Shown here: positions 4,585 through 23,776 of the stretch, in pieces
Numbering within the stretch: position 1 is the first letter of the stretch
Layout: each line of letters opens with the position of its first letter
Assembly: GCA_963845755.1 (NCBI GenBank)
Contig: CAWJTV010000028.1
Span: 64,001-128,000 of the forward strand
DNA length: 64,000 nt
Direction of reading: 5' to 3'
From: an uncultured Planctomycetota bacterium
GTDB taxonomy: Bacteria > Planctomycetota > Planctomycetia > Isosphaerales > Isosphaeraceae
Translations under genes and position numbers: made by a program
The notes under the pieces: model-generated
What the model saw: only the letters and a program-made list of their open reading frames with translations
Databases searched by the model: none
What the model was told of the DNA's origin: nothing

Positions 4585-7500
4585 CTAATTCTGCGGAGCG
4601 CGGGCGAGCATTTGATGAAACTCGGGCAATGCCTGAAGGGGCTTCAAGTCCGGGTCCGAAGCCATCTCCGAGGCCGGGAATCCGGTCTTGAGGGCGCGGG
4701 CGAGCAGCTCCAGCGCATGGGGGAGTTGCCTGGCATCGGCGGACTTCTCTGCATAGAGGGCCACGGCGCAGCCGGCATTGTAAAGGCGCCCGGAAGTGGG
4801 ATTGGCGATGAGTCGGTCGACGTCGTCCAGGGCCGCCCGGTCGCCCAGCCGCGCCCGGACCAGGGCGCGGAGCTGGATCGCGTCGATCAGGTGAGGGTCC
4901 GAATCGAGCGCCGCGTTTAGGTGCGCGAGGGCCGATGGGAGGTCCCTTCCCCGGATCAAGAGCGCCATGCCGTAGTGGGCGGCGGCCTGTCGCGGATCCC
5001 CCTCGAGGACGCGCTCGAAGTCGCGCAGCGCTCCCTGTGGATCGGAATGAACCCGGGTCATCCCCCGCGCAACCTGGACCACTGGATCGTCCGGGTTGCG
5101 GGCGAGCAAGGCGGCGAAATCGCGTTCGGCCTCGGCCTGGCGACCGAGACGCGCGAGGGTCTCGCCGCGCGATGCCAGGACGCCCAGGTCTTTCCGGCCG
5201 AGCTCGACGGCCCGGGTCAGGTCGCGCAGAGCTTCCTCGAGCTGATTCAATTCCAGCTCGACGAGGGCCCGGTTGACCATCGCCTCCACGAATCGCGGGT
5301 CCAACTGGAGCGCGCGATCGTAGGCATTGCTGGCATCGTGCAGCCGCCCCGCTCGGGCCAGCGCCAGTCCGCGATTGAAGTGGGCCCAGGCAAAGTCCGG
5401 CCCTCGCGCGGAGCAGACCGCAAAATCGCCGGCTGCCTCGAGGTACCGCCCTTGCTTGTAGTGGCAGTGGCCCAGGATGAACCAGGTCCAGAAGGAGGTC
5501 ACGTCGAGACGGATGGCCTGTCGCAGCGCGTCCTCCGCGGCCGGCGCATCACCGGCGGCCAGCAGCGTGGTGCCGAGCAGGGTCCAGTCGTGGCAGGTCG
5601 AAGGCGCGGTCCGAGCCGCCTGGAGTCGGTCGCGATCGGCCCTGGCGGGCTCGCCGAGTGCATCGTAGTATCGCGATCGCTCGTCGAACAGCGCGGCCGG
5701 AGCCGGTCGGTCGAGGTTTTCCGCCCGATCGAGCCGGGCGATCGCTCGTTCAATCGCCCGCCGCCGATCGGCCTCCGATCCGTGTTTCTTCGCCCGGAGG
5801 ACCTGTGCCCGAGCCTCCAGCATGATGAGCTCGACGGCTTGCTGGCGCACGCGACCTTGCTCGTCTGCGGCCAGGCCGTGGATCCAGCCCGACAGGTGGG
5901 CCGGTCCATCGGCCGGCAAACCGAGGTCGATGAGGCATTCTCGGGCCTTGGCGACTCCGTCGGCGAGGTGCTCATCCGACGCACCCGCGGTATTGAGCAG
6001 GAACTGAGTCTGGGTGAAATCGCGATCGAACCTCTGGAGCTGGAATCGGACCGCGAGATTCCTCACTGCACCCATCGTGAAGACCACGGCCGTGCCCATC
6101 GCGACGAGGAGAACGAGGGAAATCAGCGCGATCGAGGTGGTGCCGCAGAGGCCGGGATGTCGCCTCGCGAACTTGCCCATACGTTCCCGATAACTCGGCT
6201 CGGGACAATGCTTCATGGGCCAGTCCTCGAGGAACCGGCGCAGGTCTTCGGCGAGATGCCGGGCACGCGCATAGCGGCGATCCGGCTGGAACTCCAGGCA
6301 CTTGGCCACCAGAGCATCCAGGCTCCAGGGGATCTGGGGACATCGCGCCCGGAGCGACGGCGCGCGTCGCCGGCTCTCGGTCAGGAAGGCAAGGGTCTCG
6401 AAGACGGTCGCACCCGATGGCGGGGCGGGAAACGGGGGCTCGCCGGCAAGCATCTCGAACAGGATGAGGCCGAGGGCATAAATGTCGGCCCGTTCGTCAA
6501 CCGATTCGGGAGAGGTCGTCCCGCGCGGGTCAAACGCGTCGAGGTGCTCGGGCGCCATGTAGGGCAGGGTGCCGCCGATCAGGGCGCGGCGGATCTCGCC
6601 CTCGGACGGCTCAGGTCGATTCTCCGCCGCCAGGTTGAAATCCAGCAACATCGGGGTGCCGTCGGCCGCCAGCAGGATGTTGGCCGGCTTGAGATCGCGG
6701 TGGAGCAACCCGCGCGAGTGGGCGTGGTCCAGCCCTTCAGCCAGGCGCGCGACGATCCAGACTGCCGCGTGGACGGCACTGGCCCGGCTCAAGAACTGGC
6801 GCGAGGGCTGGTGCTGATCGTCGTTGAGGTTGACCGAGGGTGGAACCGGACTCGCGGTCCCCGTTCCGACCAGCCGGTGAAACAGGGAGCGGAACCGGGA
6901 GACCGACCCGGAACGCTCGAGTCCTTCGGTCATCCGGCTCACCGCGTTTCCGTCCGGAGCGAACAGAAGGCCGTTTGAGATGTCCGATCGCGGTGGAGGC
7001 GTGCCCAGGATCGATCCGGTCCCCCCGCTCTGGGGCACCGGCTGGCTGAGGAGGTCCAGTGCCTCGACCAGGCTGCGACCGTGGTGATCGACCTGGTCGA
7101 GACCACCCGCGGCGTCGAGGACCTGGGCGAGGTTGGCACCGCCGAAATACGGCATGCACAGGATGCGTAGGCCGGTCTCCGGATCATCGCAGACGGAGTG
7201 GACGGGCACGATGTGGGTGTGCTGGAGACGGGCGAGGATCTGGGGTTCCGCGCCTTCCGGGCGCGAGACCTTGATGGCGACCAGCCGTTGCCCCAGGGGG
7301 ATCTCCTCGGCCAGGTAGACGCGCGCAAATGCGCCGCGACCCAGCTCCCGGAGGATCCGGAACCCCGCCAGCTCGTCTCCCGGAAGCGGGAGTCCGCCGA
7401 CGCTGCGCAACCGGCTACTTCCCTGCGCCGACTTCCGGGGTCGCACCGTCCGGGTCTCTTCGAACACCCGACCCTCGTTTGCCTCCGCCCCGCCACCATC

Positions 7501-7779
7501 TTCGCCGAGGCATCCCCCCAGCCCCATCGACGCGCCCGACCGAGATTGTTCCAGAACGAATCCGGAGTGCAACTCCACGCTTTCGTTCAAGGGAAGTTCC
7601 CGCGCGATGCCGGCCGAATGCCCGCTCGTAGGGTCCGTTGGCGGGACACCGAGAACCAGGTCTACCGAGGCGGACGATTTCGACAAGTCGAGATCGTCCG
7701 GGTCCTCGATGTTCCAACCGGCCAGCAAGTCGCGGGTCGAGTCCGGATTCGAGCGTTCCGTTCCACGGGTGTTGGACAT
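4585..7779 (-). CDS. Ser/Thr protein kinase with TM segment and C-terminal TPR repeats
   Basis: GRGAFARV, AIK, HRDLKPAN, DFNLA, GTLPYMAPE; TM IALISLVLLVAMGTAVVF; TPRs (AWAHFNRGLALARAGRLHDA...). ATG at 7779 chosen within ORF 4585..7848. Confidence 0.92.
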   Translation of the reverse strand: MSNTRGTERSNPDSTRDLLAGWNIEDPDDLDLSKSSASVDLVLGVPPTDPTSGHSAGIARELPLNESVELHSGFVLEQSRSGASMGLGGCLGEDGGGAEANEGRVFEETRTVRPRKSAQGSSRLRSVGGLPLPGDELAGFRILRELGRGAFARVYLAEEIPLGQRLVAIKVSRPEGAEPQILARLQHTHIVPVHSVCDDPETGLRILCMPYFGGANLAQVLDAAGGLDQVDHHGRSLVEALDLLSQPVPQSGGTGSILGTPPPRSDISNGLLFAPDGNAVSRMTEGLERSGSVSRFRSLFHRLVGTGTASPVPPSVNLNDDQHQPSRQFLSRASAVHAAVWIVARLAEGLDHAHSRGLLHRDLKPANILLAADGTPMLLDFNLAAENRPEPSEGEIRRALIGGTLPYMAPEHLDAFDPRGTTSPESVDERADIYALGLILFEMLAGEPPFPAPPSGATVFETLAFLTESRRRAPSLRARCPQIPWSLDALVAKCLEFQPDRRYARARHLAEDLRRFLEDWPMKHCPEPSYRERMGKFARRHPGLCGTTSIALISLVLLVAMGTAVVFTMGAVRNLAVRFQLQRFDRDFTQTQFLLNTAGASDEHLADGVAKARECLIDLGLPADGPAHLSGWIHGLAADEQGRVRQQAVELIMLEARAQVLRAKKHGSEADRRRAIERAIARLDRAENLDRPAPAALFDERSRYYDALGEPARADRDRLQAARTAPSTCHDWTLLGTTLLAAGDAPAAEDALRQAIRLDVTSFWTWFILGHCHYKQGRYLEAAGDFAVCSARGPDFAWAHFNRGLALARAGRLHDASNAYDRALQLDPRFVEAMVNRALVELELNQLEEALRDLTRAVELGRKDLGVLASRGETLARLGRQAEAERDFAALLARNPDDPVVQVARGMTRVHSDPQGALRDFERVLEGDPRQAAAHYGMALLIRGRDLPSALAHLNAALDSDPHLIDAIQLRALVRARLGDRAALDDVDRLIANPTSGRLYNAGCAVALYAEKSADARQLPHALELLARALKTGFPASEMASDPDLKPLQALPEFHQMLARAPQN

Positions 7780-8192
7780 ATTTCTCGATCGGGAATCGGG
7801 AATGAAACGGTTGCAACGAAACCGGGCGCTTTTGGGGCTCGATCCCAACCACTCCGGCGCCGACGCCGGACAAAAGGTGAGTGGCTAGGGTCGAATCCGG
7901 CTTCAGACGGCCGGTCCCAGGAGTGCCGGCGCTCGAGTGACCGCACAGAAACCACGCGCGGTTTCCAGGCGACAAACTCGAGATGCCTCGGAACTCCTCG
8001 TTCCGTTGTGGAAGGACGTGCCCGTATCTCCCTCTCGCGGAGGAAGACTCTACTTCTCTCTATGTCTCGGAACGAACTCTGTCCAGCAGATCGATGAATG
8101 TCCTGGCGATTCGCAGCGTGAGTGGCGCAGCGTCACTACGCGAATTCAATCGTGGCCTAGAATAGGGATAGGTACTCTCAAGAGGTGGGATC

Positions 8193-9350
8193 ATGCGAGT
8201 CGAGACCAGTCGGACGGCCGAAACGCAAGGCGTTGGCAGCGATTCGGGTACGATCACGGCTCCAAACCGGGGTGAAGAGAGCGAGCACGTCGTGATCGGC
8301 CGTCTCATTCGCCGACTCCGGATTTCGGACCCGCCAGATCGCTTCCAGGAACTGGCGACGACGGTATTGCGCTCGTCCCTGGGCGTGATGGCGGTGGCCT
8401 GGGTCCCCCGAGATCCCCACGAGCCGGTGATTGTCGGCGGATCGGTGGAGGGGCTGGACGCTCCGGCGTATCGGCTGGTGCCCGCGCCGACCGGCCGAGA
8501 GACGATCGTGGTTCACAACGAGATCGCGACCGGCCCATCGCGGTCGATCCACCCCAACATCGTCCGCTATGCCGCCGTCTCGGCCGGCGCGCTCGGTTGC
8601 TTGATCGCGGTCAATCCGCTCGACGACCGGCCGTTCCACCAGGACGAGGCCGAGCGCCTTCAGTATGTCGCCTCGTTGATCGAGACCCAGCTCGCCAACG
8701 CGAAGATTTATGGCGATCTCAAGGAGTTGCTTTTCGGGATCATCCGGGCCCTCACCGCCGCCATCGATGCCAAGGATCCCTACACGTCGGGCCATTCCGA
8801 GCGCGTGGCTCGGATCGCCGTCCGCCTGGCCGAGGAGCTCCGGATGCCGTCGCCGAAGCGGAGCGATCTCTATGTCGCCGGACTCCTCCACGACGTGGGC
8901 AAGATCGGCATCGAGGACGACGTCTTGAAGAAGGGCGGCCCGCTCACCCAGGACGAATTCCGCAAGATCCAATCGCACGTCGAGATCGGGGTGACGATCC
9001 TCAAGGACCTCAAGAAGCTGCACCACATCCTGCCCGGAGTCCGCCACCATCACGAGAGTTACGACGGCAACGGATACCCGGACCGCCTGGCCGGTGATTC
9101 GATCCCGTACGAGGCCCGGATCCTGGCCGTCGCCGATTCCTATGACGCGATGTCCAGCAATCGACCTTATCGCCGACGCTTGAGCCTCATGCAAATCGAC
9201 GAGATCTTCCGCAAGGGGCGTGGGCAGCAATGGGACCCCGCGGTCGTCGACGCCCTCTTCGCCTGCCGGCGCGACCTCGAGGCCATCCGGCAGAAGGGAC
9301 TGGGTGAGAGCCTCATCGGAGCGGTCAACGTCGCTCTCGGTCGAACTTGA
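8193..9350 (+). CDS. HD-GYP domain protein (probable cyclic-di-GMP phosphodiesterase) with N-terminal GAF-like region
   Basis: DPYTSGHSERVA, LLHDVGKIG, HHHESYDGNGYP, ARILAVADSYDAM, RPYR motifs. Confidence 0.92.
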   Translation: MRVETSRTAETQGVGSDSGTITAPNRGEESEHVVIGRLIRRLRISDPPDRFQELATTVLRSSLGVMAVAWVPRDPHEPVIVGGSVEGLDAPAYRLVPAPTGRETIVVHNEIATGPSRSIHPNIVRYAAVSAGALGCLIAVNPLDDRPFHQDEAERLQYVASLIETQLANAKIYGDLKELLFGIIRALTAAIDAKDPYTSGHSERVARIAVRLAEELRMPSPKRSDLYVAGLLHDVGKIGIEDDVLKKGGPLTQDEFRKIQSHVEIGVTILKDLKKLHHILPGVRHHHESYDGNGYPDRLAGDSIPYEARILAVADSYDAMSSNRPYRRRLSLMQIDEIFRKGRGQQWDPAVVDALFACRRDLEAIRQKGLGESLIGAVNVALGRT

Positions 9351-9376
9351 ATCGAACGGGAGATCGGCCCTGTGAA

Positions 9377-9852
9377 TCACTTCATCGCGCGTATAATCGG
9401 TCGGCTCGAGGAACACCGACTCCACCTGCTTGACCAGTTTCCCGTTCTTGTGGCTTTCCGCGTAGACCTTCTGCCACTCAGGGTCCTTCCCGAACGCTTC
9501 CCACGTCTTCTTGGCGGCCTCGCGACTGGGAAACGCGACCAGGTAGATCAGCTTCGCGCCCTTGCCGTCCTTCTCATCCGTGGGGGTCCAGAACCCGATT
9601 AGCTCCGCGCCGTGCTTCTTGAGCAACTGGCAGGTATGGTCGCGGAATCGCTTGTGCAGGTCGGTCAACTTGCCTTCGTTGAGGTGGTAGGTCCGAAGTT
9701 CGAAGACGCGTCTTGCGCCGGTGGAATCCTGCCCGCCGCAGCACGTGCACGCCTTTTCCTTGGCCGTCGGGGACTTGGCGGGATTTGTCGTCGGCACGAG
9801 CCGGCACCATGCAAGCCACCAGCACTAAGCCCGTCATCATGTGGCGAATCAT
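9377..9852 (-). CDS. Secreted NIPSNAP family protein (frameshifts near ~9780 and ~9388)
   Basis: Signal peptide MIRHMMTGLVLVACMVPARA; core VFELRTYHLNEGKLTDLHKRFRDHT...HGAELIGFWTP...LIYLVAFPSREAAKKTWEAFGKDPEW...VFLEPTDY; ATG AAG TGA ending in the shifted frame. Confidence 0.85.
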
Positions 9853-10079
9853 GGGTGCGATGCTCCGTGTGATTGTGTCGGCAGTTTGACCAAGAACCGA
9901 TCTCGTTTCGGTTATAACGCCTCGTGAGATGCTGCTCAAGCGCCGGGTAATTCGTAGGGATAACGGGATGACGTCACTAAACCCATACACTCTGACACGC
10001 GGCTCCCGTGGATTTCGGTTCTCGAAGTCATGCAGTTGGCGAGGGCTGGTCGAGTTCGACGACCGAGAGCTGCGAAGAT

Positions 10080-11536
10080 TTACTCTCTCGAATCCCGCAT
10101 CGACTCGTCGTTTGGTTGTCCAGGACGGAGGGGCCGGGAGCGCGGATTGCGTGACTCGCCGAAGATTCTGACCAGCGCCAGCGTTTTATCTTGGAGAGCG
10201 GGCGCGTTTCCATGATCTCAACGAGGTCACCGTAACGCGATAGGTTCCGCTCGTCATGAGCGTAGCAGATCGTCCGCCTCCGGATCATCTTGCCGTACTT
10301 CGGGTGAGGCTCGATTCCCACGACCTCGACCCGGCGCGTCTTGTCCATCTTCGCGCTGGTGACGAGCCCCTGGAGGACGCGACGCGGCTTGCGGCCGCGG
10401 GCGGGCGATTCCCGATTCGCGTCGGGGAAGCCGGGGATTTCGGGAAACGGCGTGAGTGGTTCGTGCTCCGTTGCTTTTTGAGGCGGAAGCCGCGGCGCGA
10501 GGTCGTGGTCCGGCTCGGAGAGGGCCAGCTTGAAGGAGGAGTAGTCGAGGCGGTTGGCGATGGTCCGCAGACGATCGCGGAATTCGGTGGCACGCTCCAG
10601 GTTACCGCACACAATCCGGTCTTTCGCCCTGACGACGCGTGCCATCGACGCCGATTCGATGAATTCGTTCAAGCGGGAATAGAGGATCGAAAACCCTTCC
10701 GTGAAGAGCGGTCCCTCCAGCCTCTCGACTCTCAAGAACTGGGCGAGGGCCTCCGGCCGTCTTGATCTCCGGGCGAGGTTCTCGCCGAAGATGATCGCCG
10801 CGTCCGGGAATTCGGGGAATCGCGCCGCGAACGACTCAGCCCACGGGTTGACGCGGTTGTTGGCACCGAGGCTCAAGAGGCCATAACCGCCGGCCGCGAC
10901 GGCAATCGAGTCGTCAAGGTCCCGGAACAGTGCGAGATTCTCGGCCTGGATCAGCAGTTGATCCGCCTCCTCCAATTGACCCGACTTCAAGTACCGAAAC
11001 GCCATGCCGGCCGAGAGCGACTCGCGAGCGAGAGACGCGAGCGAGGAGGATGAAGACGAGGAGTCGCCTCGGGCGAATGACGGGTCTGCGCGACCGAGGG
11101 GTTCGGAGGTCGCAAGTACCGAGAAATCGACGAGGCATTCCGCCTCGTGTTGGATCTTGCACGTCTTCGAGTACGCCTGGCCACCAGGCGGCCTGCTGGA
11201 GATGACGTAGTAGCCTGGTTGCAGGTCGAGCCGCCTGGAACCGATGACCCAGATCGAGGACGACTGGGCGTGGTCCCGGATCTGGATCGGGAATGGGCAC
11301 TCCTCGGCCCTGATCCAGAGCCGACCGGTCCCGCTCGCCGGTCGCTTTTTCGCGGCGGGGTCACGAGCAGGTTCGGGACCGGGGACATCCGCGGGAATGC
11401 CCAGCTCGTCCTCGATCCAATTGCTCAGGATGTCGGGGCCATCAGCAGGCTCTGGCCCGGCAACCTCCGCGGGCATGTCCGCCTCGTCCTCCTCTTCCTC
11501 CTCCTCTTCCTCCTCGATCCAGCCACTCATGCCCAT
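10080..11536 (-). CDS. Multidomain protein: acidic repeat N-terminus, probable beta-sandwich, helical/TPR-like domain, C-terminal ribosomal protein uS17-like domain
   Basis: ORF 10028..11536; C-terminal RRVLQGLVTSAKMDKTRRVEV...HPKYGKMIRRRTICYAHDERN..YGDLVEIMETRPLSKIKRWR is unmistakably uS17; a 1-nt shift near 10173 restores RWRLVRI and a stop at 10080. GAGGT SD upstream of the ATG. Confidence 0.8.
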
Positions 11537-11549
11537 TAGCGACCTCGAA

Positions 11550-12890
11550 TCACTCGAAGGGGACGAAGTGCAGGGTTTCGTTGCAATCCTTATCGGCCTC
11601 GATTGGGAGATAGATTTCCGTGTGGGGTGGGTCGGACGACGCCGAGTCAGCCGTGAACTTCAACCGGCATACGCCCGAGGGCGCGGAGGCCACCGGAAGG
11701 TACGGGGCCAGCTCTTTCTTCTGGTCGGCGGTCAGCGAGCTCACCGCGCCGTCGACGTCGAAACTCAGCGTGTAGGGTCCCGGCTGGACCGTGGAATCGT
11801 ATGGGTTGGCGGGGAGTGGGCTATCCAGGACGCTCTTCTTGTGTTTTAGGTTTCTCAACTTCGCATGGGCCACACGGATCACGAGAGTGGGGTCGATTTC
11901 GAGATGGAAGGGGATCTGGGGCGGACGGCTCGTATAGTGAAAGTTCGTCTTGAATAAGCACTTGGAAGTGTCGGCTTGGACGTACTGGACCTTCTTTTTG
12001 TAGTTCGCGATGTCCAGGGTCCTCCGCTGGAGCGGCTCGACGAGGTCCTTAACCGCAACGCTCCACCCATGAATGCCGTGTTCTCGAAGTGCGAACCGTC
12101 CCAGGCATTCCAGCAAGGCACGGCTGAACACCGTCCCAAACTCATCTCCTGTCTCGTAAGCCGGATCTCCATCGCGCGTGCTGTAGATCGTGCATCGATT
12201 GATGGGGTCGCGATACGTCTTCGACTCGTACACAATGATAGGGCGGCCACCCAGGACGTCAGGATTCTTGTACTTGGAGGGGATCGGCTCCGTCTTGCAA
12301 GCGTTGACGAACACAAACTGTTTGCGGGCGTCGGCGTAATCGAGGGCCTCGTGAATATTCCGAAGATCGAGAGAGCCGTCGAGGCACCGTTTCGTTTCGG
12401 CGAAGTCTTCCAGCAACACGCGAGTGATCTGGTGTCCATCGAGGATTCCGTGGCCGCTCACGTAGAGAATCGCAACATCGCGCGAGCGTCGGTTGCAATC
12501 GTCATACCAGGCTAACACGGTGCGCTCCACCTCTGGGAAAGTCGCGCGTTGAATCGTGCCAGTTTTGTCGTCGAAGTCCTCTTTCGCAAGGCCCAGGTTG
12601 ACCATCTCCTTCGGGGTCGGAGACAGGAGCAATCGGATGGAGGCCAGAGGGACAACCGGTTCCTCGCGGCGATCCAAGGACTCCTTGAGATACTCCTTGC
12701 GGAGCCAATCCGCGAATCGATAGGCGCCCGTGGCCGTCGAGGTGAGTTCATCGAGTCCGAAGGTCTCGTTCTTCGGATGATCTGGCGTGTCGCGGAGGTA
12801 GGGATAGTGGCTCGACCCAACGATGAGGGCGTGCGTCGCGCTCCCCTTCGAGCTCCGGTCGGGATTCCTGAACCACACCGCTTCGTTCAT
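11550..12890 (-). CDS. Caspase-like (peptidase C14/metacaspase-type) protease with C-terminal beta-rich domain
   Basis: THALIVGSSHYP start, LYVSGHG (His ~12451), FVFVNACK (Cys ~12298), TVFSRALLECL late helix. Confidence 0.85.
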   Translation of the reverse strand: MNEAVWFRNPDRSSKGSATHALIVGSSHYPYLRDTPDHPKNETFGLDELTSTATGAYRFADWLRKEYLKESLDRREEPVVPLASIRLLLSPTPKEMVNLGLAKEDFDDKTGTIQRATFPEVERTVLAWYDDCNRRSRDVAILYVSGHGILDGHQITRVLLEDFAETKRCLDGSLDLRNIHEALDYADARKQFVFVNACKTEPIPSKYKNPDVLGGRPIIVYESKTYRDPINRCTIYSTRDGDPAYETGDEFGTVFSRALLECLGRFALREHGIHGWSVAVKDLVEPLQRRTLDIANYKKKVQYVQADTSKCLFKTNFHYTSRPPQIPFHLEIDPTLVIRVAHAKLRNLKHKKSVLDSPLPANPYDSTVQPGPYTLSFDVDGAVSSLTADQKKELAPYLPVASAPSGVCRLKFTADSASSDPPHTEIYLPIEADKDCNETLHFVPFE

Positions 12891-14281
12891 TCTGCTTTCT
12901 CCCGCAGCTCATCGGCGATCTTCTCGTAGAAGAACGACTCCGTGAAGTAGGCGGAGTGTGCCTTCAGGATGTCGTTCCGGCCCGGCATCCGGATGTCCGT
13001 GACCGCCTCGTTACCGAAGACGGGCTGAGCCTGGTATGAGAAGAGGTCGGCCTGGTCGTAGAAGTTGAGCCACTTCTGGACCTTCGCGGGCTTGAGCAGG
13101 AATCCGGCGGTGGGCTCGGCATTCTTGCGATAGACGGCCATCTCCGCGAAGAGCGAGACCTGGGCGCCGGCCATTACCCAGAGTCGGACGGAGATATCGC
13201 TGAGGTCGCTCGAGGTGAGAAGGTCGTAGAAGATCGCACTGCCGAAGGAGTGCGTCACGACCACGAGCGGTTCATTGTTTTTCTCGGCGACCTGCGCGGC
13301 GGCCTGGATGCCCTTGGCGGCGCGGTCGGCGATTGGTCCAAGTTTCTCACCGGTGCTCTGCCCGCGCCGGAGGTACTCGAACACGTCGCCGAAGAAGAGC
13401 ATCGCGCCGGGCCCCACCTCGTTGCGCAGCCAGGGGGCAAGTCGTGGATCGGAGGGGTTCAGGAGCGCCCCCGCTGAGTAGAGCCGGGCGCGGAATGCCC
13501 CCGCGCCGGCCTTCTCGGCAATATATCTCGCAGCCCCTACGGTGGCGTCCTTCAGCGCGTGCAGTCTCTCGGAGGCCTCCTTGATGATCTCCTTTGCTCC
13601 CATCTCGTCGTACGGCTTGCCATCGGCGACCGCTCCGGCGGATTCCTCATACGTGTTTAACTCGTCCACGATGGCCTGATCGATGGCGTCGAGGGCGGCT
13701 TTCCCTGTCTTCGACGTCTTCAACTTTGCGAGGAACTCGGGCCGTTGCGCCACGGCATCGGCGGCGATCAGCAGAAGGGCGCTGACCTGGCCCTTCTGCT
13801 CAGCAGCTTGCCGATCGTCCACCTTCATGTCCTTCGTCTCGGCGACGGTCCGCAAGTCCGGTTCGAAGCGACATCGCTCGGGGGCCACCACGGCCCGGAT
13901 CAAGTCCACGGGGGCTTCTCGGGCCGCCTTGAGTACGACCTGATCGTGTGTCTCCGGTAATGTCTCCGGGTCCGGCTCGGTTCCGTCCTTCGACAGGATC
14001 GAGATCAACTCGAAGAGTGCGGCAGCGGGATCGGTCGTTTCGACGTGGCCCGTTGCTCCCATTGCCTTGGCTTTCTCCAGGCCGAACATCGAGGAGAGAT
14101 CCCAGCGAAAGCGGACACCCAGATCACCCCAATAAAGGTCCTCCAGGACATCGAAGTTTGGATAGCGGGGCTTGGTCACGGGGAGCACGTACTGCTCGAA
14201 CATCTTCCTCCGCGCCTTGCCGCTAGCGAAGTAAACCTCGTCCTTGCGGACGCTCACTCCGTGGATGAATAAGATTGGCAT
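12887..14281 (-). CDS. Alpha/beta-hydrolase fold protein (lipase/esterase-like) with large helical insertion
   Basis: ILFIHGV oxyanion strand, YWGDLG, FFGDVFEYL, VVVTHSFGS nucleophile elbow (Ser ~13248), WLNFYDQADLFSY, AHSAYF; GGAGGT SD; ATGA overlap with the caspase gene. Confidence 0.85.
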   Translation of the reverse strand: MPILFIHGVSVRKDEVYFASGKARRKMFEQYVLPVTKPRYPNFDVLEDLYWGDLGVRFRWDLSSMFGLEKAKAMGATGHVETTDPAAALFELISILSKDGTEPDPETLPETHDQVVLKAAREAPVDLIRAVVAPERCRFEPDLRTVAETKDMKVDDRQAAEQKGQVSALLLIAADAVAQRPEFLAKLKTSKTGKAALDAIDQAIVDELNTYEESAGAVADGKPYDEMGAKEIIKEASERLHALKDATVGAARYIAEKAGAGAFRARLYSAGALLNPSDPRLAPWLRNEVGPGAMLFFGDVFEYLRRGQSTGEKLGPIADRAAKGIQAAAQVAEKNNEPLVVVTHSFGSAIFYDLLTSSDLSDISVRLWVMAGAQVSLFAEMAVYRKNAEPTAGFLLKPAKVQKWLNFYDQADLFSYQAQPVFGNEAVTDIRMPGRNDILKAHSAYFTESFFYEKIADELREKAE

Positions 14282-14625
14282 TGTCGGGCACCTCCAGCGA
14301 ATGCCTCAAGGTGGGCAGGCAAGGCCGGCCTGCACTCAACTGACCTGGCACGCGTCGGCGACATCGCCTGTCCATTTGTATGGGCGTCTGGCGTATTCAC
14401 CGCCGAGCGCCGATCGCCCCACCCTTCATCTGTCAGAATGGACGATAATTGAACCGGATTCAAGAGGCCTCTCCAACTGCGCAGCGAGATCCCGAGCGCA
14501 CCGACGCCTTGAGCATTGCGGAGCGCTTCCGCCATGCAGCGACCGTCGTGGTTCCCTGGTGTCGATTCACCGGCTGGTCCATCCGATGGCCCTCGGACCA
14601 GCCGGGCGAATCACTCCGACCCCGT

Positions 14626-17600
14626 TCAACGGAACCCACCAGCCGCGGCACCATTCCGATTGCCGGCCGGTTGATCGAACCGTTGCTGGAGCCGCTGGAT
14701 CTGCTTCAAGTTATTGGTCGAGTTCTGCATGCGGAGATTGGCATCGAGGGATTCATCCGCTTTGGCTGAAGCATTGGGCATGGTCTGTCCCTGCCCTGGT
14801 TGCTGAGCCGGCACTTGATTCTGACCCTGCAGCGATTGGCCGACGTAGCTCGTGCCGCGGTAGAAGGCGTATTGATTCGACCCTCGGCGCGCGACGGCCG
14901 TGACGACTCCGCGCACTCCTTCGGCCACGAAGATGCCCCGAAGGTCGGTCTCGCCCGAGAGGAACTGGGGATTATCGCTCCCGATGACTTTCACCTGGAC
15001 TTTCGGCAGGAGGTCCTTGGTCGATGCATCGCGGACCGTCACACGAACTCGGCCGGCGCCCGAGTCTTCGAGTACCTCGAGTTCGATCGGTGAGACCAGG
15101 ACGATCCCGGATGCGTAGAGACTCTCGCCGCGAAGCATGACGAGATACGCCGCCGTCCTTGGTCAAGGGAAGGTCGATTGCCTTGGCCTTGTCACCATAG
15201 TCGGCTCCATTGCCGAGGGTCACGGCTTTCTCGACCAGCGGCGTGATGCCCGCGAGGTCAATGCCGGCGATCCCGTTCAAGTTGCGGCGGGTGAGGTAGA
15301 GCTGCATCAGGTTGACGGGATAGGCTTTCACGTCCACCTGGGCGATATTGCGATAATCCAGGGCGATGCCCGGCGAAGGGCCCGGATCGGGGGCTCGATC
15401 GGCGGCGACCGCCGCACCCCTGAGGCTGGCGACAAGGACGCCGCGGACGGGGGTTGCGGGTTCGGTCCGCTCGGCGACCGCGGGACGGACCGCGGACCGG
15501 ACGACGGAGACCTCGGGAAGCTTCAGGTCCTTGCGGGTGTACGAGGTGATGGCGCCCGCCGCGTCGGTGAAGCGGTCGGCAACCTGCCGGTAGTATTCCA
15601 GCGCCTTGGCCGGCTGACGGCGCGCATCGTAGATCTGGCCAAGGATATAGAGGGCCTGCCACTTGTTCGGGCTGGGTTGCTCGGCACCCGCGGCGTCCTT
15701 GTAAGTCGCCCTGGCGATGGTGCCGGCCACCTCGACCGCGCGGTCATAATGGCCGAGATGGAAGTCGCCCAACGCCTCGCTGTACTGGAAGCTGTCGAGG
15801 TACGTGCTCTTGGGATAAACCGTGGCGAACCGGCCGGCCAGGCGGACCACCGACTTGAAGTCTTCCAGCTCGATGAACGCGCCGACCAGGGCCAGGCTGG
15901 CCTCGTCGGCCATGGGGTTCCTGGGCGATTGCGCGAGGAAGACCTGGATCATTCGAATGGATTGCACCAGCAACTCCGAGCGAGTGATCCCGGCGGCGGC
16001 CAGCTCGCGACGGAGATTGGGCTCGGTGATCGCACGTGACGCCGCCTGGGTCAGGACCTGGGAGAGTCCGAAGAAATCGCTCTCGATTGACGCCGTGTTC
16101 GGATAGGACCGCCACAGGTCGATCAGATAGGCCATCCCCTCGAGCGTCTTTCCCCGCTGGCGCAGCAGCTCGCCCACCCGAACATCCTCCAGGTAGCTGG
16201 CCTCGATCAGCCCGCGCCAGACGATCATGGCGCGCTCGAATTCCTTGATGTCCCGATAGGCGGTGCCGATCGCCAGCAACTGGTCGAAGCTGAGGAACAG
16301 CTCGGGGGATTTCTCCTTGACTACCTCGAAATACTGGACGATCTTGCGTGGCTGGCCCGCGCGGATGCTGATCAAGAGGAGCATCCGGGCCGCGTCCTTC
16401 GCGATGTCATCGCGGAGGGTATAGCCACCATAAAGCGACTCGAGGGCATCGCCGGCCTCGGCGAACCGTCCGGCGTCGAAGTGCGCCTTGCCTCGAGCAT
16501 ATAACTCGTCGGGCGTCGGCTTGTAGGGATCGGTGCTCGCTTGGCCGGGAGACCGGACACGCAGCTCGCCGGGCTGGCCGATGTGATAGTGCCCCGGCTC
16601 GTAGGCACTGCGCACCGAGGCGGGCAGGCGCGGTACGTGCCGGGAAGATACCCGTAAAGGTCGTAGGTGGTTGTCCCGGGGTTGACATCGGGCGGGAAGT
16701 AGAGGGTCAGCACGCCGTCGGCCAGCTCGAAGGAGGAAGCCGATGTATTCACGGAACCCTCGATCAAGGTCGTGCCGGCAGGCAAGTGTTCCTGCACCAC
16801 GAGGTAGTCGCGCTCCCACTCGGGAACGTTCCAGGGGATGTTCCGGAATGCGGTGACGGCAATCTGGGCTCTTCCGCCCACACCGACCTGGCTGGCGATG
16901 TTCTCGAATGTGTTGGGATTGACCGCGACCCCGAAGCCGACCGGCAAGACCTTGCCATCGAGCTCCGGCGGCGCTGGATAATAGACGCGGCGATCGATCC
17001 ACGCCACACGGCCGTTGCGATCCTGGTCGGGAGCGAATTCACGAGTAAATCCGGCGAGCGTGACGGCATATCCGAACTCGCCGCGGCCTTCCATCTCGAA
17101 TCGGATGCGGTTGGGCTTTCCGACCTCCAGGTTGGTGCGTGGGACGGCGACGACCTTTTCCTGGGCGGTTCCCAGCACGTCGATCACCGTGAGCGGCTTG
17201 TCATTGACGGTCACAGTCAGGCGATAACGATCCTCGGCGCCCTCGGCGCGGCCGTAATACGTCGCCAGCGCGGTGAGTGCCGGCCCCTTGGCCTTGTGGG
17301 GGAGCCACCCATTCGCGACACGGTGAGCCTGGAGCCAGTCGATGCTCCGGTCCATCTCGTTGGCCTGGGGGCGGACCCGGGCGTAAGCCAGGCTGACGAG
17401 GGCCGTCGTTTCGGCGGTACCACGGACCATCGGAGATCGGCCGGGGGCTTCCCAGTAGATCCGGGGCCTCAGGCCGGGCGCGACGGTTTCCGTCTTGGCA
17501 CGCGGTCCCAGGATGTCCAGCAGCTCGCCGGCCATCGAGGCACGGTCCAGGTTGGCGAAGGTCAACGCCAGGTACGCCAGGGCCGGGCTCGACAGGTTGT

Positions 17601-20600
17601 TCCGGAGCCGGTTCAAGCTGTTGGCCGCCTCGAAGCTGGCCGCGCGTCGCGTGCTCAAGGCGTGCAGCAACGCGGCACGGGTCTCGAGATCGCTGCCGTT
17701 GACCCGGGCGAATTCCTGCTTGAGATAAGTCAGCGCCTGGTCGAGCACCTTGGGATCGGTCAAGAGTCCCAGCGGCTCGGCCGAGGCCAGCGCCAGACGA
17801 CCGCCGCGGAGGACAGCCGGTCGCTCTGTAGCGACTGATCCGGTCGATTCACGATCGAGAGCGGCGGAGGGGCGGCCACCCACGGCCAACCGCCGTCGGG
17901 ATTCTGGGCCGCGATCAATTCGGCGACCAATCCCTGGATCCGTTCGGTCAGGCGCTGGGCTTCCGGTGCTGCAGTGGCGCGGGCATCGTGGAGATAGCGC
18001 AAGACCGAGGTCGCCCCCACCAGGTCCGCGGCACGATCCGCCGTGGTGTTGCTCGGCGGCGGGATGACCCGCGCCGTGGCGTTCAAGCTGTGCTCATCGA
18101 TGTTGATCAGGAGCTGATAGAGATTGGCGTCGCGTCCTAACGCCATCTCGATCAACATTCGGCGAATCGTCGGAGAGAGCGCAATCAGCATGTCGGGATT
18201 TTCATACGTCCGACCCGCCGGCAGTCCGACGAAGACGGTCGTGCTCTCGCGGCCGGTCCCCGATGCCGAGGCGTAAACCGGCATGCCCCAGGGATGGATC
18301 GGGACCTCGACGACCAGCTCATCCTTCAGGTCGCCGACGGCGCCGGTGAGGGTCAATCGAAGCGTATCACCATCGGGCACTTCATACGGTTCGAACAGGA
18401 CCTCGTCGATTCCGTCGCCCTTGAGTTCGAGCATCCTGGGAAACACGTCGTCGCGGCCACCGGCGTAAGTCGCCAGGCGCAGCGCGAGCTGGCCCTTGAC
18501 GCCCGTATGGTGGACTTGCGCGATGAAACGCGGCTTGTCCCCCTGAGTCAGCGCGGTGGGAACCTTCAAGTCAACGAAGAAGTCCTGGCGGACCGTCAGG
18601 GACGATGTGGTTTGCCCGGCCAGGGTGTCGGCGCCGGTGATGCCTCGCGCCGTGATCCGGTACTCGGAGAGTGCATTGGGGGCCTGGAACGTGACCCGCG
18701 CCTTGCCGTCCTTGCCGGTGACAACAGCCGGGTTCCAGTAGGCCGATTCCACGTATCGCTCGCGCGGGGATCGAGGATCGTCCGGTTTCTGGACGGCGAA
18801 GGTGGAGCGACGCCCTTGCGAGCGATCCCGGGAAAGATCATTGAAGTTTCTCGCAAATTGGACCCCAGCGAGTTTCTGCGCTCTGATTGTCACCCAGGCC
18901 TTCTTGATCGACGGCGAGAGGAACGCTCTTTGTCGCATCCTCACCGCTCATGGCCCTGCCGCCGACCCCGCCGCCCATTCCTCCCATCATGCCCATGCGC
19001 GGGTGCAGGCGAATTTCCAGGAACCGGAGCAGCCTCGGCGGGCGTCGGCGCAGGGGCTAGGGGCGCTGGGGCGACCTCATTGAAGAACCCCTGTCTCCCG
19101 CCCGCAGCGAAGTACTGCCGTCGTGCGCCCGCATTGGCCACCCTGGCTTGCTCACGCGCTGATTCCTCGACAACCGCCTGTGACACACCGACTGTGTCCG
19201 GCCGATAAGCGAACGTGTTCGTCGCCTCGGTGGAGAAGGATCCGGTACGGGTCTGGCTGTAGAAGAACGGACCGATCTCCGGGAGCCGGTCGTGGAAGAG
19301 GCGCAGGAGCGACTGGTCGACCATCGCGATCGAGAGCTCGGCCGAGACGGGCTGGCCGAGCTGGTCGGCGGCCGTGATGTCCAGCTCGACCGGCTCGCCC
19401 GGCCTCACGACCGCCCTGGCTGGCTTGACGGTGACGCGGAGGTCGCGCACGACCTCGATGTCGAGCCTCGCTTGATCGCACTCGTTATGCCACATTCGCG
19501 TCGAGGTCAGCGTGAAGTTGGGGAACTGGGCGCCGTCGATCGGCCAGGCGAGCGGGTTATCACCGTCCTTGAGAGTCACGATGCGGTAGGAGAGGATGCG
19601 GTCGGCCTCCCAGGTCAGGAGCGCCGTGCCGGACCGCCCGCGGCTGTGCAGGTTGACGCGCGCCTCCTCACCCACCTTGTAGCTTTGACGGTCGGTCAGG
19701 AGCCGCAGCTTGGTCTCGTCCTCCTTGCCGGAGATGAAGATCAATCGATCGGCGACGATCGGGGTGCCGAACCGGTCGGTCCCCGCGACGCGGAGGATGT
19801 AATGGCCTCCCTCGGAATCGTCGGAGCGGAAGGTCAGAGAGCCGCGGCCGGTCTTGGGGTCGGTCGCAATGGTCTTGCTCGTGACGTCGCGCTCGGTGGT
19901 GCGTCCGTCGACGTTGACCTGCTTGATCAACGTGGCCGAGAGGGACTCGCCGATCGGGCTGCCCTGGGCGTCTGTCGTGACGATCTGGAGCAGGAACGAT
20001 TCGCCGTCGAGGTAAACGCCGCGGGGCGTGCTCACGCTGATCTCGAATCCGCGGATTGCAAGCCGCACGTGGGCCTCGGCGGCCACGTTATCCTGCGGCA
20101 GCCGGGCGGTGAGGTGCAAGGTTTGCTCCTCGGCGAATCCCTCGGTCGAGAATTCGACGTGATACTTACCCACCGCGTCGGTCGTGCCGTGCAGTGTGCG
20201 GCCGTCGGGGAGGCCGATCTCGATCGGCCGAGATGACAGCGGTGCGCCGTATTGATAGCGAGCGACGAGGTCAACCTGGACCGTCTCGCCGCGGTAGACC
20301 ACACTCTGCTTCACGTCGAAGGTCAGGTCGATCGGTTCGAGCTGGTACGACTGGACCTCGAAGCTCCCCGAGAAGACGCTCTTGCCCGGCTGCGATACCG
20401 TGACGCGGTAACTGCCCAGCGGGGCGGCCGTGTCGAGCGGAAGCGTTTCGTGGAACGTCCCGTATTCCGAGAGGGTGATCGACCGGGCCACGATTATCCG
20501 GCCGCGGCTGTCGGCGACCTCGAACCGATAGACGGCCTTCGGCATATTGGCATACTGGCTGTTCCGGATCTCCCGCACGACGCCGCGGACCGAGACTTTC

Positions 20601-22906
20601 TGGCCCGGTCGATAGGCGGGCCGGTCGGTGTAGATGTAGGCGCGGGGACTCAGCCCCTGGGCGACCTGGTTCGGCACGGTCAGGTGCGAGCCGGCGACGT
20701 GCGGCCCGTCGAGGACCAGATAGGTCAACTTTCGGTTCAGCTCGCGGGGCGAATCCCAGTTGCGGAGCAGGATGCCGTCCTGGCCGGTCGTCGCCTCGAG
20801 CACGACCTGACCGTTGTCGGCGACCAGCACCCGTGCACCGGCGCGGCCCTTTCCGGTCTTCATGTCCTGGGCGAAGACGAGGACCTGGTCGCGCGACGTC
20901 TTGACGATCGCGTCCAGATCGCTGCCGATCACCAGTGTCGTGGCCTGGAACGACTTCTCGTCGGTCACCTTGACGACGTAGACACCCGGCAGCTCCAGCT
21001 TCTTCAGGTCGTAGGTCTTCTCGATCGGCTTGTACCTGGCATATCCGGGGACCGGGACCGACCACGAGGCGTCCGGCGCGACGAGACCGATGTCGAGCGT
21101 CTCGACGTTCGCCAGCTCGTTCTTCTTTCGGAAGTAAGCCTCGGCGCTGAGTTTGTACGCGGTGAAGCTGAGCGTCTCGATGTTCCGCGACGTGATCTTG
21201 AGGTGGGCCTCTTCGCCCGATCGGAAGGTGCGCGGTGTGATGACAACCAGGTACTTCGATTCCATCACGTCGATCCGCCGGAGCGCCTGTGATCGCCAGG
21301 GCTCGACGGTGATCTTCTTGAAGCGCTCGATGGCCTCGGCCGGATCGCCCTTCTCCGTCTCGAAGATCGCAGCCGTCTGGTACTGGGCGTGGGCCGCCGG
21401 CTCGCTATCCGGGAACTTGCTGGTCAAGGTCTCCCAGGCGGCGATCGCCCGGTCCCATTGCTTTTCCTTCTCGAAACTATGGCCGATCAGGTAGAGGATC
21501 GCGGGAACGCGCGAGTCGAGTGGGTTTTGAGCGACGAATTCCGACCAGGCCGCGCGGGCCTCGGCGAAGTGACTGCGACCCTGGTGATCCTGGGCGATCA
21601 TGAGCTGCGCGGTGAGGATGGCCCGCTGGGCATCGGCGCTCTGCGGCCCGTTGGGGAACCGGGCGAGATAGCCCTTCCACGCCGCGATCGCCTCGGCGAA
21701 CTTCTGCTGTCCCTGGAGGATCGCTCCGACCCGGTAGGATGCCGCCATCGACAGCGAGGCCCAATCGCGCCGCGCCTCGTCGGTCTCGATCTTGAACCCC
21801 TCCTCCTTGAGGAATCGCGTGAACGCATCGAGCGCCTGGTTATCCTTGCCGCGGACCTGATAGGCGGAGCCAATCTCGAAAGCAGCCTGAACCGCGCGAG
21901 GATGCGCGGGCACGGCAGCCAGGAATCGTTCGAGGGTTGCCACCCCCAGGTTCAGGCTCGTATCGTCGGGCGGATTGGGTATGCCGTAAGTGGAGGGGAT
22001 CTCGGAAAGAGCCTGCGCGCGGATCGCGTCGATGGCCGGCGTCCGATCGGCCGGCTTCAGACGCTCGATATCCCGCGACAGGTCGGTCCAGGTCAGTCGT
22101 GCGGGGAGGGGCTGATTGACTTTCTGCTGTGCCTCGCCCAGCCGCAACCGGACCGTGAGCCGGTCGGCTCCTGCGGGGTAGTCTGCCAGATAGGCCTGGA
22201 AGTTCTCGATCGCTCGACCGAAGTTCCCGGCTGCGAGACTGGCTCGACCCATCGCGAAAAGGAACGTGGCGCGCAGGGCCGGGCTCTTGGCGAGGTCGCG
22301 TGCCTGGTCGAGCAGCTCGTACGCCGCGTTGGGATCGGCCCTGACCAAAGGATCGTCCGGTTCCAGTAAGCGGCGTGCAAACGCATGGTAGACCTCGGCC
22401 AGCCGGTCCTTGCGGTCGCCGGCCAGCAGTCGTTCGGCCTCGGAGCGGGTCAACTGCTCGGCGGCGGCCAGGTTCCCCGAGGCCAGCTCGATCCCCGCCA
22501 GCTCGAAGCGGATCTTGGCTTCCCATCGGGTCACGGGCGCGGCCTGGAGCGCCGACCGGAGCGTTTCTCGGGCGGCGTCGCGATTCCCGGCGAGTCGTTC
22601 CGCAATCCCTCGGAGGTAGCCGAAATACGCCCGATCGTTCGCGTCCTTCGCGTTCTCGCCCAATCCGATCAAGGCCCGACGCGCGTCCTCATAACGGCCT
22701 TCCTGCATCGCGGCCACGAGTTCCGCAGGGATCGTGGGTGCTGCCGGGTCGATTGCGCTCCTGGCCGTTACGACGGCCGGCAATGCAACCCCGGGATCGA
22801 CCTCGAACGCTCCCGACCGCAAACCCGCCAAACCCACGAGCATGATCCAGGCGGCCCCGACGGGGATTCTCGGCCCGATTAGTCGTCTCACGGTTGCTGC
22901 CTCCAT
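14626..22906 (-). CDS. Giant secreted TPR + alpha-2-macroglobulin (MG2) family protein, split in five ORFs by frameshifts
   Basis: ORFs 18941..22909, 17760..18944, 16372..17889, 14972..17002, 14626..15138 join in order: signal peptide, TPRs, YIYTDRPAYRPGQ (MG2), LSIAMVDQSL, RERYVESAYWNPAVVT, QNPDGGWPW, YLVVQEHLPAG, further TPRs. Confidence 0.88.
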
Positions 22907-23776
22907 CAAAAGTTGAGCACGACGGGTGGATGGCCTGGGTCCTTCGGGAAGCAGTCTCAGCTTCGGTCGAGGACCTTGTTCAAGCTGAAAATCCTTGAAG
23001 TGTCAGGAATTACAGTTCCGAAGGGCACGACCCGGTCGCCTGCCAAGGAACTCCATGGGAGGAAGGGGCGGCGGGCCCACCGATCTCACAATCACACAAC
23101 CCGCCAGCGATTCTACCTCTCCCTCCGCGGTTTTGAGCCCCTCAAGTCAGAATTGGTTCCCGAGACCGATGAAATCCTTCGGAGTTGCTCCGCGCCAGAT
23201 TCCGGCTTTCCTTCAGACTTGACGTACGAAGACCTTTTTTCTTTGTCCCAAACGGGAAAGTTCGCCCGTATCCGCGTGGAGATGCGGATCGATTACGTTG
23301 TCCTCCTCCGCCGTTCCAAAGCGTTCGATGATTGCATCGAGTGAGAAACCAGCCCAGCGGAACGGCCCGCGACTGGAACTCTCATCGTATTCCCTGGTCT
23401 CATTTCCCGTTAGAAAGACGAACTCGGCCTGAAGATGCCGCAGCATCACGCTCCGGCGTGCCTTCGCATTGCGACCGAGTCATCACGAGTGTGTGAAATC
23501 GAGGTTGGCCGAGCGAATTGCTAGAAATGGGCATCGCAAGGATCAACGCCATTCTGTATCCATGCACGCATTTTATTGCATGAATTGAGGTTCAGTACTT
23601 GGTGGTGGTGGGATTTTTAGGAATAATGTGTCGCCGTGCGTCGCCTTATTTCGAGATGACACAACAGTGGAGTTCCTGTATCTAAGACATCAGGGGTTTG
23701 CAGAAACTCTATTCGAACAGGATTGCGGAGTGATTCGTGACGAGGTGGACCATTCACGGAAGAGTCGGAGACTGAA

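Follow-up and report, generated by a model that had tools for sequence, protein, structure and literature searches.

The 64,000-nucleotide (nt) stretch analysed here, hereafter the window, belongs to contig CAWJTV010000028.1 of the assembly GCA_963845755.1, from an uncultured planctomycete of the family Isosphaeraceae. On its minus strand the window harbours a three-gene cassette of 4.65 kb (9950..14600, approximate limits), which encodes an alpha/beta-hydrolase-like protein, a caspase-like peptidase and a protein assigned to the Y4kD_C family that carries a C-terminal domain of the ribosomal protein uS17. The latter protein (10028..11536, minus strand; 502 aa) is encoded by a single open frame, with GAGG 8 nt before its ATG. 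We are highly confident of the architecture of the cassette and of the fusion as described below.

The uS17 domain comprises residues 385-454 (10175..10384, minus strand) and was placed there because of the limits of its Pfam and NCBIfam matches. Pfam Ribosomal_S17 (PF00366) matched residues 390-454 (E 7.8e-24, 84 bits, cut-off 25.9), NCBIfam NF004123 matched residues 385-454 (86.6 bits, cut-off 74), and TIGR03635 reached 86.6 bits, slightly below its cut-off of 88.7. An earlier reading made from the letters of the window (the sequence-only reading) had claimed a uS17 domain at 10160..10399, in frame with about 380 upstream residues through a Pro-rich linker; the single 502-aa open reading frame (ORF) and the profile matches bear this out, and the claimed span was correct to a few codons. 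The linker itself (10385..10531, minus strand; residues 336-384) is predicted to be disordered, with a predicted local distance difference test (pLDDT) of 30-43, and the dipeptide R380-G381 abuts the start of uS17. On reading the sequence of the ORF, no in-frame ATG, GTG or TTG was present between residue 336 and Met397, in agreement with the earlier statement that the uS17 part lacks its own ATG. Met397, the first in-frame start-type codon past residue 336, is the conserved internal methionine of the uS17 domain. The GC content at third codon positions (GC3) differs little between the N-terminal domains (0.80-0.85), the linker (0.78) and the uS17 part (0.83), and since it stays high through the linker, the linker looks translated. 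AlphaFold2 predicted the uS17 domain as a five-stranded oligonucleotide/oligosaccharide-binding (OB) fold (residues 387-455; pLDDT about 90), with the last strand shortened to residues 453-455. Foldseek returned 202 matches at E<=1e-3, and the predicted domain resembles solved bacterial uS17 chains at a template modelling score, TM(target), of about 0.75 and a root-mean-square deviation (rmsd) of 2.3-2.6 over about 75 columns, with 45-51% identity.

The assembly (14.3 Mb, 49 contigs) possesses exactly two uS17 matches. The second one (G000:C33, L001 1441..1767; 108 aa) lies within the gene order rpsC-rplP-rpmC-rpsQ-rplN-rplX, and it is considered the real rpsQ of the genome because it is flanked by rpsC, rplP and rpmC and by rplN and rplX. 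The canonical gene was therefore found between rpmC and rplN on contig C33, and the fused copy is not the only rpsQ, a concern that the sequence-only reading had raised. The fused copy is located outside the S10 operon, as had been claimed: its neighbours are the caspase gene and the edge of the cassette, and it lacks the format of a stand-alone rpsQ of about 85-110 aa with rpmC and rplN as neighbours.

A frame break of 1 nt (10172..10177, minus strand) is present at the 3' end of the domain, between 10174 and 10175. In frame the protein reads RWR-WSE, whereas the -1 frame reads RWR-LVRI. To recover the canonical ending of uS17, LVRIFGES... and a stop, the sequence has to be read in the -1 frame starting at 10175; the motif LVRI had been claimed to be in frame, which was mistaken, since the in-frame reading after RWR454 is WSESS.... 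What is left of the ancestral ending (10080..10175, minus strand) reads LVRIFGESRNPRSRPLRPGQPNDESMRDSRE in the -1 frame and then meets a stop. The in-frame tail past the break (10028..10174, minus strand) consists of residues 455-502 and the stop codon, and is disordered (pLDDT 33-49). Past the break neither frame carries a strong coding signal (GC3 0.62 in frame, 0.68 in the -1 frame). The intact C-terminal strand typical of rpsQ (W-R/T-L/I-V-R) is missing from the window copy, which reads RWRWSE; in the alignment, the other fusions described below end in ...WRLVR[IV].... The window copy may be weakened, or possibly decaying, because the break clips the last strand of the domain. No slippery heptamer for a programmed frameshift was seen at 10175 when the sequence was read by eye.

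The database search also revealed a contig of 4986 bp from ENA, whose product P0004 is nearly identical to residues 247-502 of the window protein. P0004 shows several frame switches in the linker and uS17 part, and the same RWRWSESS... tail as the window protein. This common tail hints that the frame break is a real feature of the DNA rather than an error of a single assembly, with the caveat that the P0004 contig may be noisy; the two alternatives for P0004 are that the same organism was assembled noisily, or that this allele has decayed. The locus was carried at small shares by 4 public soil-metagenome runs from one study. Contigs from these runs covered 10470-11143 and 11521-11600 within 10000-11600, with the linker-uS17 junction and the frame break outside the coverage. 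Among the public runs found, no RNA data set carried the locus.

The fusion is genuine and recurrent, and no artefact, because three other database proteins show the same architecture. P0002 (500 aa, Logan; contig of 13.7 kb) and P0163 (572 aa, JGI; precomputed label PF27295 plus PF00366) have the same domain order as the window fusion, and P0156 (JGI), a fragment of 249 aa, contains the end of the helical domain, the linker and uS17. Their overall identity to the window protein is 30-34%. The sequence-only reading had allowed for a stop, a frameshift or a misassembly at the junction; the three proteins speak against a misassembly, and the frame break that is present affects the domain at its 3' end, not the junction.

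Another uS17 fusion was detected on a Gemmata scaffold (L074:6001-7116, plus strand). Its product P0164 (371 aa) consists of ~270 residues of uncharacterised sequence followed by uS17 (78.7 bits), and represents a further, non-ribosomal type of uS17 fusion within the same clade. The N-terminal sequence of P0164 is not related to Y4kD (hhalign probability 0.2%), and the neighbouring genes encode a leucine-rich repeat protein, DUF1573 proteins and a C39 peptidase, with no ribosomal genes. The uS17 OB fold would thus be a reusable planctomycete module, since this genome fuses uS17 to an unrelated partner. In addition, P0003 (JGI, 376 aa) possesses an N-terminal uS17 followed by about 270 residues without a Pfam match, and joins the Y4kD fusions in the tree described below (94/79).

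Duplicated uS17 genes were not a feature of related genomes. Among 120 other genomes of the planctomycete family, 114 contain one copy, six, all of them incomplete, contain none, and none contains two; each of the 40 genomes sampled elsewhere in the phylum has a single copy. A maximum-likelihood tree was built from 69 uS17 domains and 79 columns, in which many forks are unresolved. The four fused uS17 domains are found inside a starred clade (99/87) together with 12 canonical uS17 of the same planctomycete family, which is in agreement with the earlier proposal that the domain was captured from the host lineage. P0002 and P0163 are paired (98/91). A single origin of the fusions appears in 16% of the bootstrap trees, and is thereby neither shown nor excluded. 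The window branch is long, 0.4 compared with about 0.05 for its canonical neighbours.

Constraint on the fused domains was evaluated at 25 columns that are at least 90% conserved in 41 canonical planctomycete uS17. The four fused copies keep 25, 23, 24 and 25 of the 25 columns, with all 25 kept in the window copy, and four canonical uS17 that were checked keep 22-25 of them. Identity among the fused copies is only 66-73%. Fused and canonical uS17 differ mainly in the strand-2/3 segment before HPKYGK, where VERLVPHP contrasts with VVGIEPHP, VSWQSKHP and VFYPTQHP. To judge from these columns, this is the pattern of domains that would still be selected for uS17 activity. In the ribosome, uS17 binds 16S rRNA early in 30S assembly.

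The domain limits in the rest of the protein were taken from AlphaFold models built with alignments. The acidic N-terminus (11342..11536, minus strand; residues 1-65) is disordered (pLDDT 33-55), includes a run of nine Glu and does not occur in the other fusions; as a speculation, it could mask the very basic RNA-binding uS17 domain in cis. The N-terminus is followed by a beta-sandwich domain (11117..11341, minus strand; residues 66-140; pLDDT about 90), a Ser-rich linker (residues ~146-171) which is disordered in the model, and a helical repeat domain similar to tetratricopeptide repeats (TPR), the core of Y4kD_C (10532..11044, minus strand; residues 165-335; pLDDT about 90). With VIA-align, the beta-sandwich resembles immunoglobulin/pilin-like chains (Z 8.9-9.2, rmsd 2.0-3.0 over 75-77 residues), and the helical domain resembles TPR proteins at Z 10-11.4. 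The term TPR-like is used as a description and not as a family assignment, because these values are under the caution level of about 13 for helical repeats. Foldseek with the N-terminal part gave zero matches at E<=1e-3.

The precomputed database label of the exact fusion protein is PF27295.1 plus PF00366.27, and the nearest Atlas clusters of its N-terminal part are 96-99% PF27295 (Y4kD_C). The phmmer search of the full database with residues 1-375 revealed 494 representatives at E<=1e-3, and 98 at E<=1e-10. The 149 relatives listed of these 494 have a median length of 407 aa. Fourteen of the 149 listed representatives possess a C-terminal extension of at least 90 aa; Endonuclease_NS was found in two and trypsin in three, the C-terminal domains having been surveyed in 25 proteins picked by length from 150 listed of the 494. 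The sequence-only reading had considered that homologues might exchange other housekeeping domains at the position of uS17; instead, the relatives carry nucleases, proteases and other domains there. A search with the family alignment for longer Y4kD proteins retrieved none at E<=1e-6, where they were probably crowded out.

Relatives of the N-terminal part were scarce in the phylum. A search of 300 other genomes of the phylum for the Y4kD family yielded just 2 weak matches, both to the beta-sandwich part. When the whole fusion protein was compared with 100 genomes of the family, 95 matched in the uS17 part only and five had no match. This scarcity is to be read as not found among the genomes searched, not as shown absence. 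A metagenome scan with the N-domain alone found no relative, and the scan with P0163 retrieved 16 loci in which the match is confined to residues 444-552, that is, uS17 and at most ~30 residues before it; the contig of P0163 itself was not among them.

The caspase gene (11550..12890, minus strand), to which the sequence-only reading had referred, lies directly upstream of the fusion gene and encodes a C14 peptidase of 446 aa with an intact dyad, His147 (SGHG) and Cys198 (NACK). It matched PF00656 (E 3.5e-8, 33.8 bits, cut-off 21.4), and its start overlaps the stop of the hydrolase gene (ATGA). PADLOC (2023 library) gave a weak match for the caspase alone (PDLC02987, E 7.7e-4, 16.8 bits); the other two proteins of the cassette were unmatched.

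The alpha/beta-hydrolase-like protein (12887..14281, minus strand; 464 aa) has no match of its own in Pfam, NCBIfam or PADLOC. It contains LFIHGV at 4, HSFGS at 344, YDQADL at 408 and KAHSAY at 440; HSFGS, an Asp near 411 and a His near 442 are taken as the hydrolase motifs. The protein is homologous to the product of the gene preceding the caspase gene on four rhizobial plasmids (E 2e-18, 2e-21, 4e-21 and 2e-23). Two of the four plasmid homologues have weak Abhydrolase matches, and the hydrolase fold was assigned because of these matches and the motifs of the window protein. A single R-G is present (306/307), and N-R-G is found at the aligned place in the homologues of pNGR234a, pAK76 and pR76.

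The cassette is a mobile indel unit, whose three-gene make-up with a hydrolase had escaped the sequence-only reading, as had the Y4kD_C identity of the N-terminal part. In a genome of the same genus (G020, contig C2) the two flanks of the cassette, the kinase/HD-GYP side (window 4598-9942) and the alpha-2-macroglobulin side (14626-18866), are syntenic with the window at 80-82% nucleotide identity and lie about 110 bp apart, whereas in the window ~4.65 kb with exactly three genes are found between them. The junction alignment of the window with this genome revealed no clear target duplication. The GC content of the cassette is 0.616, compared with 0.652-0.655 in the flanks.

Plasmids carry counterparts of this gene order. 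A tblastn search of plasmids with a typical Y4kD member (P0011) revealed seven records, of which six were examined and the unannotated H3 was left out; the same search with the N-domain of the window protein had zero matches. The caspase gene is directly upstream of the Y4kD homologue in five of the six plasmid loci, and is fused to it in the sixth (L022). Fusions of caspase and Y4kD were found in P0074, P0136 and L022. The gene preceding the caspase gene is a homologue of the window hydrolase in four of the six loci (pNGR234a, pAK76, pR76 and the Agrobacterium leguminum plasmid p4, L022). The remaining two loci possess an M12 metallopeptidase in the place of the hydrolase and a giant Y4kD protein; the one of these two giant proteins that was scanned has trypsin and PLD domains. 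The window caspase has 22% identity to that of pAK76 over 374 residues (E 1e-9). Genes near the plasmid cassettes include those for RES toxins, a restriction enzyme, and HNH and Vsr endonucleases. The Y4kD proteins of pNGR234a (L019), pAK76 (L020) and pR76 (L073) are 548-550 aa long, with ~150 residues past the helical domain; in pNGR234a and pAK76 this region has no Pfam match and occupies the same position as uS17.

A complex of the window caspase with residues 66-460 of its partner was modelled, with a score of 0.80 compared with 0.00 for the best of three controls. The mark of 0.80 was attained by 116 of 157 solved complexes and by 2 of 215 mismatched pairs. Scores of the individual runs were 0.80, 0.84 and 0.00, with a between-run contact agreement of at least 0% and a partner pLDDT of at least 59. 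The modelled interface involves the beta-sandwich and the TPR-like domain on one side, and residues 150-154 and 202 of the caspase, adjoining His147 and Cys198, on the other; zero residues of the linker or of uS17 take part. The model supports binding of the Y4kD core to the caspase near the catalytic cleft. Y4kD_C is a known but uncharacterised family, and we infer for it the role of a caspase-binding scaffold with a variable C-terminal slot, the first role proposed for this family from its context.

The sequence-only reading had proposed four roles for the uS17 domain (a decoy, an rRNA sensor, a ribosome tether or a released dominant-negative fragment), and the arguments for choosing among them are indirect. 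For the uS17 domain we favour, tentatively and well aware that it may prove wrong, a role as the input or tether arm through which a protease-gated hydrolase system contacts 16S rRNA or the 30S subunit. By analogy with published modules, the caspase would cleave a hydrolase zymogen, and the activated hydrolase would kill or arrest the cell. The Y4kD core would bind the protease near its catalytic cleft and act as a regulatory or sensor subunit. The uS17 domain would retain the ligand of uS17, the 16S rRNA of the 30S body when naked or during assembly, and would either bring the protease complex to ribosomes or pre-30S particles, or report a site that is freed or damaged. Whether the protease fires would thereby depend on the condition of the translation apparatus. 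An input or tether is preferred over a released toxic domain because the window cassette keeps a separate hydrolase effector; an input is also preferred because the scanned Y4kD protein with toxic enzymes, and the second giant member, belong to cassettes without a hydrolase, where an M12 peptidase is found instead. Several observations weigh against a role as input or tether: one of the three complex runs scored 0.00, the frame break takes LVRI off the closing strand of the window uS17, the window branch in the uS17 tree is long, the C-terminal slot of Y4kD relatives holds typical toxic enzymes (Endonuclease_NS, trypsin, PLD), which favours a payload, and the window hydrolase, likened to the studied homologue by analogy, has one R-G where the latter has two.

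The fusion could also be explained without any role for the uS17 domain in the present organism. A stray rpsQ copy might be in frame by chance behind an unrelated gene, or the contig might be chimeric at the junction, since long chance open frames arise in high-GC genomes and no read coverage is available at 10000-10469. We consider this very improbable, as the same domain order occurs in three proteins from other sources (Logan once, JGI twice) at 30-34% identity, the product of the ENA contig repeats the window sequence, the coding signal is unbroken and the uS17 part lacks its own start codon. The fusion might instead have been functional in an ancestor, with the window copy becoming a pseudogene and its uS17 part now idle. 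The loss of the last strand through the 1-nt break, with no coding signal in any frame past it, would fit such a decay, as would the long branch of 0.4, the lack in the window protein of the middle beta-rich segment of P0002, P0163 and most family members, and the several frame switches that break the near-identical P0004. Nonetheless, the frame is otherwise open over 502 codons with a GC3 of 0.78-0.85, none of the 25 strongly conserved uS17 columns is lost, neither the caspase dyad nor the hydrolase motifs are damaged, and both the break and those of P0004 could come from errors or noise of the assemblies, so that decay of the window copy appears improbable.

Other explanations give the domain a different task. 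The caspase might cut the Pro-rich linker and free the uS17-like domain, which would compete with the genuine uS17 for 16S rRNA while 30S subunits assemble, or coat RNA, and stop translation as a second effector in addition to the hydrolase; we regard such a payload as possible but rather unlikely. The effector-type enzymes in the C-terminal slot of Y4kD relatives (Endonuclease_NS and trypsin, with PLD in the plasmid member) fit a payload, and the fusion protein has just two [RK]-G dipeptides, at R156 and R380, both in disordered linkers, with R380-G381 directly before uS17 and a K-G at the corresponding place in P0002. Cleavage at R|G is reported for the caspase/hydrolase pair that has been studied (Evans et al. 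2025, PMC12642450), and RNA-binding OB folds are found among effectors, with proteolytic release of effectors proposed (Kaur et al. 2020, PMC7159879). However, P0163 and P0156 lack [RK]-G near the start of the domain, which leaves the site in two of the four fusions, and about 3-4 such dipeptides are expected by chance from a rough estimate of composition. None of the linker residues is placed at the protease in the complex model, the cassette already has an effector of its own in the hydrolase, and one extra ribosomal protein domain would be a weak poison unless abundant. The uS17 domain might also be a mimic that baits a phage factor directed at uS17, be it for modification, cleavage or binding, and so triggers the caspase. 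Such a decoy would be in agreement with the derivation of the domain from the host's own lineage in the tree, with its close likeness to uS17 at conserved positions, with the modelled flexible linker that joins it to a protease-binding TPR-like scaffold, and with other protease modules fused to housekeeping-like domains, such as a DnaK-like one, in the excerpt of Evans et al. 2025. Nevertheless, the fused copies diverge from canonical uS17 in the strand-2/3 segment, whereas a faithful bait should track the host protein, and we consider the decoy quite unlikely. In the ribosome uS17 is largely buried in rRNA, and is thus an unlikely target compared with surface proteins. We know of no phage factor targeting uS17, and no search for one was made.

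With the role of input or tether preferred, it is conceivable, and we put this forward with considerable reserve, that a cell-suicide cassette took the primary 16S-rRNA-binding protein of its host as a ribosome probe, which docks on 30S or pre-30S particles or baits a phage factor. If this were true, damage or takeover of the ribosome would fire the protease and activate the hydrolase, and prokaryotes would have an equivalent of integrated-decoy or guard immunity centred on the ribosome. Protease-gated effector modules are a major theme of bacterial immunity, and the fused uS17 offers the concrete hypothesis that one of them has the ribosome or rRNA as its input, or as a second output. The fusion also represents the recruitment of a core ribosomal protein into a non-ribosomal protein, which is rare for uS17.

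Outside the insertion, the flank at window 4585-9350 contains an ORF of 1087 aa that, when read by eye, resembles a Ser/Thr kinase with C-terminal TPR-like repeats, and encodes an HD-GYP-type (HD_5) protein of 385 aa; both are conserved in the same-genus genome. On the other side, alpha-2-macroglobulin-like genes (MG2, A2M_BRD, A2M, TPR) extend over several consecutive, overlapping ORFs (14626-22909, minus strand). These genes, at 18941-22909, 17760-18944, 16372-17889 and 14972-17002, may be split or frameshifted, and the part up to 18866 is syntenic in the same-genus genome.

The uS17 domain of the window is similar to ribosomal uS17 (rpsQ; PF00366, TIGR03635) in sequence, in its predicted OB fold and in its 25 of 25 conserved columns, but it lies away from the S10/spc operon, lacks a separate start codon and has its last strand out of frame. 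The order hydrolase-caspase-Y4kD is common to the window and pNGR234a, for whose y4kD gene the family Y4kD_C (PF27295) was named. Compared with typical Y4kD_C proteins, of about 407 aa and ending soon past the helical domain, the window protein adds the acidic N-terminus and uS17, and it lacks the beta-rich middle segment found in P0002, P0163 and most members of the family.

Among known systems, the cassette most resembles the caspase/alpha-beta-hydrolase modules, which are described in the excerpts of Evans et al. 2025 (PMC12642450) and Kaur et al. 2020 (PMC7159879). The former describe an alpha/beta-hydrolase zymogen that is cut at two R|G sites by the caspase-like protease next to it, after which the hydrolase kills E. 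coli, and protease-effector pairs that are coupled to diverse sensors. The latter mention 'alpha/beta hydrolase-CASPASE pairings', list S1-like and cold-shock OB folds among effector domains, and report L12/ClpS domain insertions; the paper has three mentions of 'ribosomal', none of them on S17. The window likewise possesses a dyad-bearing C14 peptidase translationally coupled to the preceding hydrolase-like gene, and the type is likewise small and mobile, with plasmid relatives among defence-type genes. In contrast to the published modules, as far as these excerpts go, a constant third gene (Y4kD) is present here, with uS17 in this lineage. The window hydrolase, of 464 aa with a long insert and one R-G, also differs from the studied Lysobacter protein of about 300 aa with two R|G in the same source. 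The two-gene EACC1-caspase system, in which EACC1 is a small pore-forming protein (excerpt of PMC12642450), was rejected as an assignment, since caspase_w_EACC1 reached 33.4 bits against a cut-off of 140 and the neighbour is a 464-aa hydrolase, not a small transmembrane protein.

The cassette also invites comparison with CATRA. Burroughs and Aravind 2020 is said to define the CATRA and CATASP components. The name stands for 'Caspase and TPR repeat-associated' in the excerpts of PMC12657218 and bioRxiv 10.64898/2026.08.12.744502. In short descriptions, CATRA systems are caspase-dependent, TPR-associated and ternary, with a variable effector position (PMC8195603, PMC12657218, bioRxiv 10.64898/2026.08.12.744502), which would fit the caspase, the TPR-like Y4kD and its variable C-terminus, and Y4kD_C might correspond to CATRA. 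No uS17 in a caspase or phage-defence setting was found in the literature, nor a ribosomal protein as an integrated decoy against phages in bacteria, nor a relevant study of y4kD, and the CATRA paper, Nicastro et al. 2023 and the supplements of the preprint may list it. The cassette type and Y4kD_C are therefore known, and it is uS17 in such a setting that was not found in print.

The finding is notable; nonetheless, there is precedent for housekeeping-like domains in such systems, with DnaK-like, L12/ClpS and S1-like OB domains already present in them. In Gemmata, moreover, uS17 is fused to an unrelated partner away from the ribosomal operon. Plant immune receptors of the nucleotide-binding leucine-rich repeat (NLR) type can carry integrated decoy domains. 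The DnaK-like domain fused to an EACC1-protease module has 50% identity to canonical DnaK (excerpt of Evans et al. 2025, PMC12642450). By analogy, the window fusion may be compared with the NLR integrated decoys and with these DnaK-like-EACC1-protease fusions, as a copy of a host housekeeping protein within an immune-type protein.

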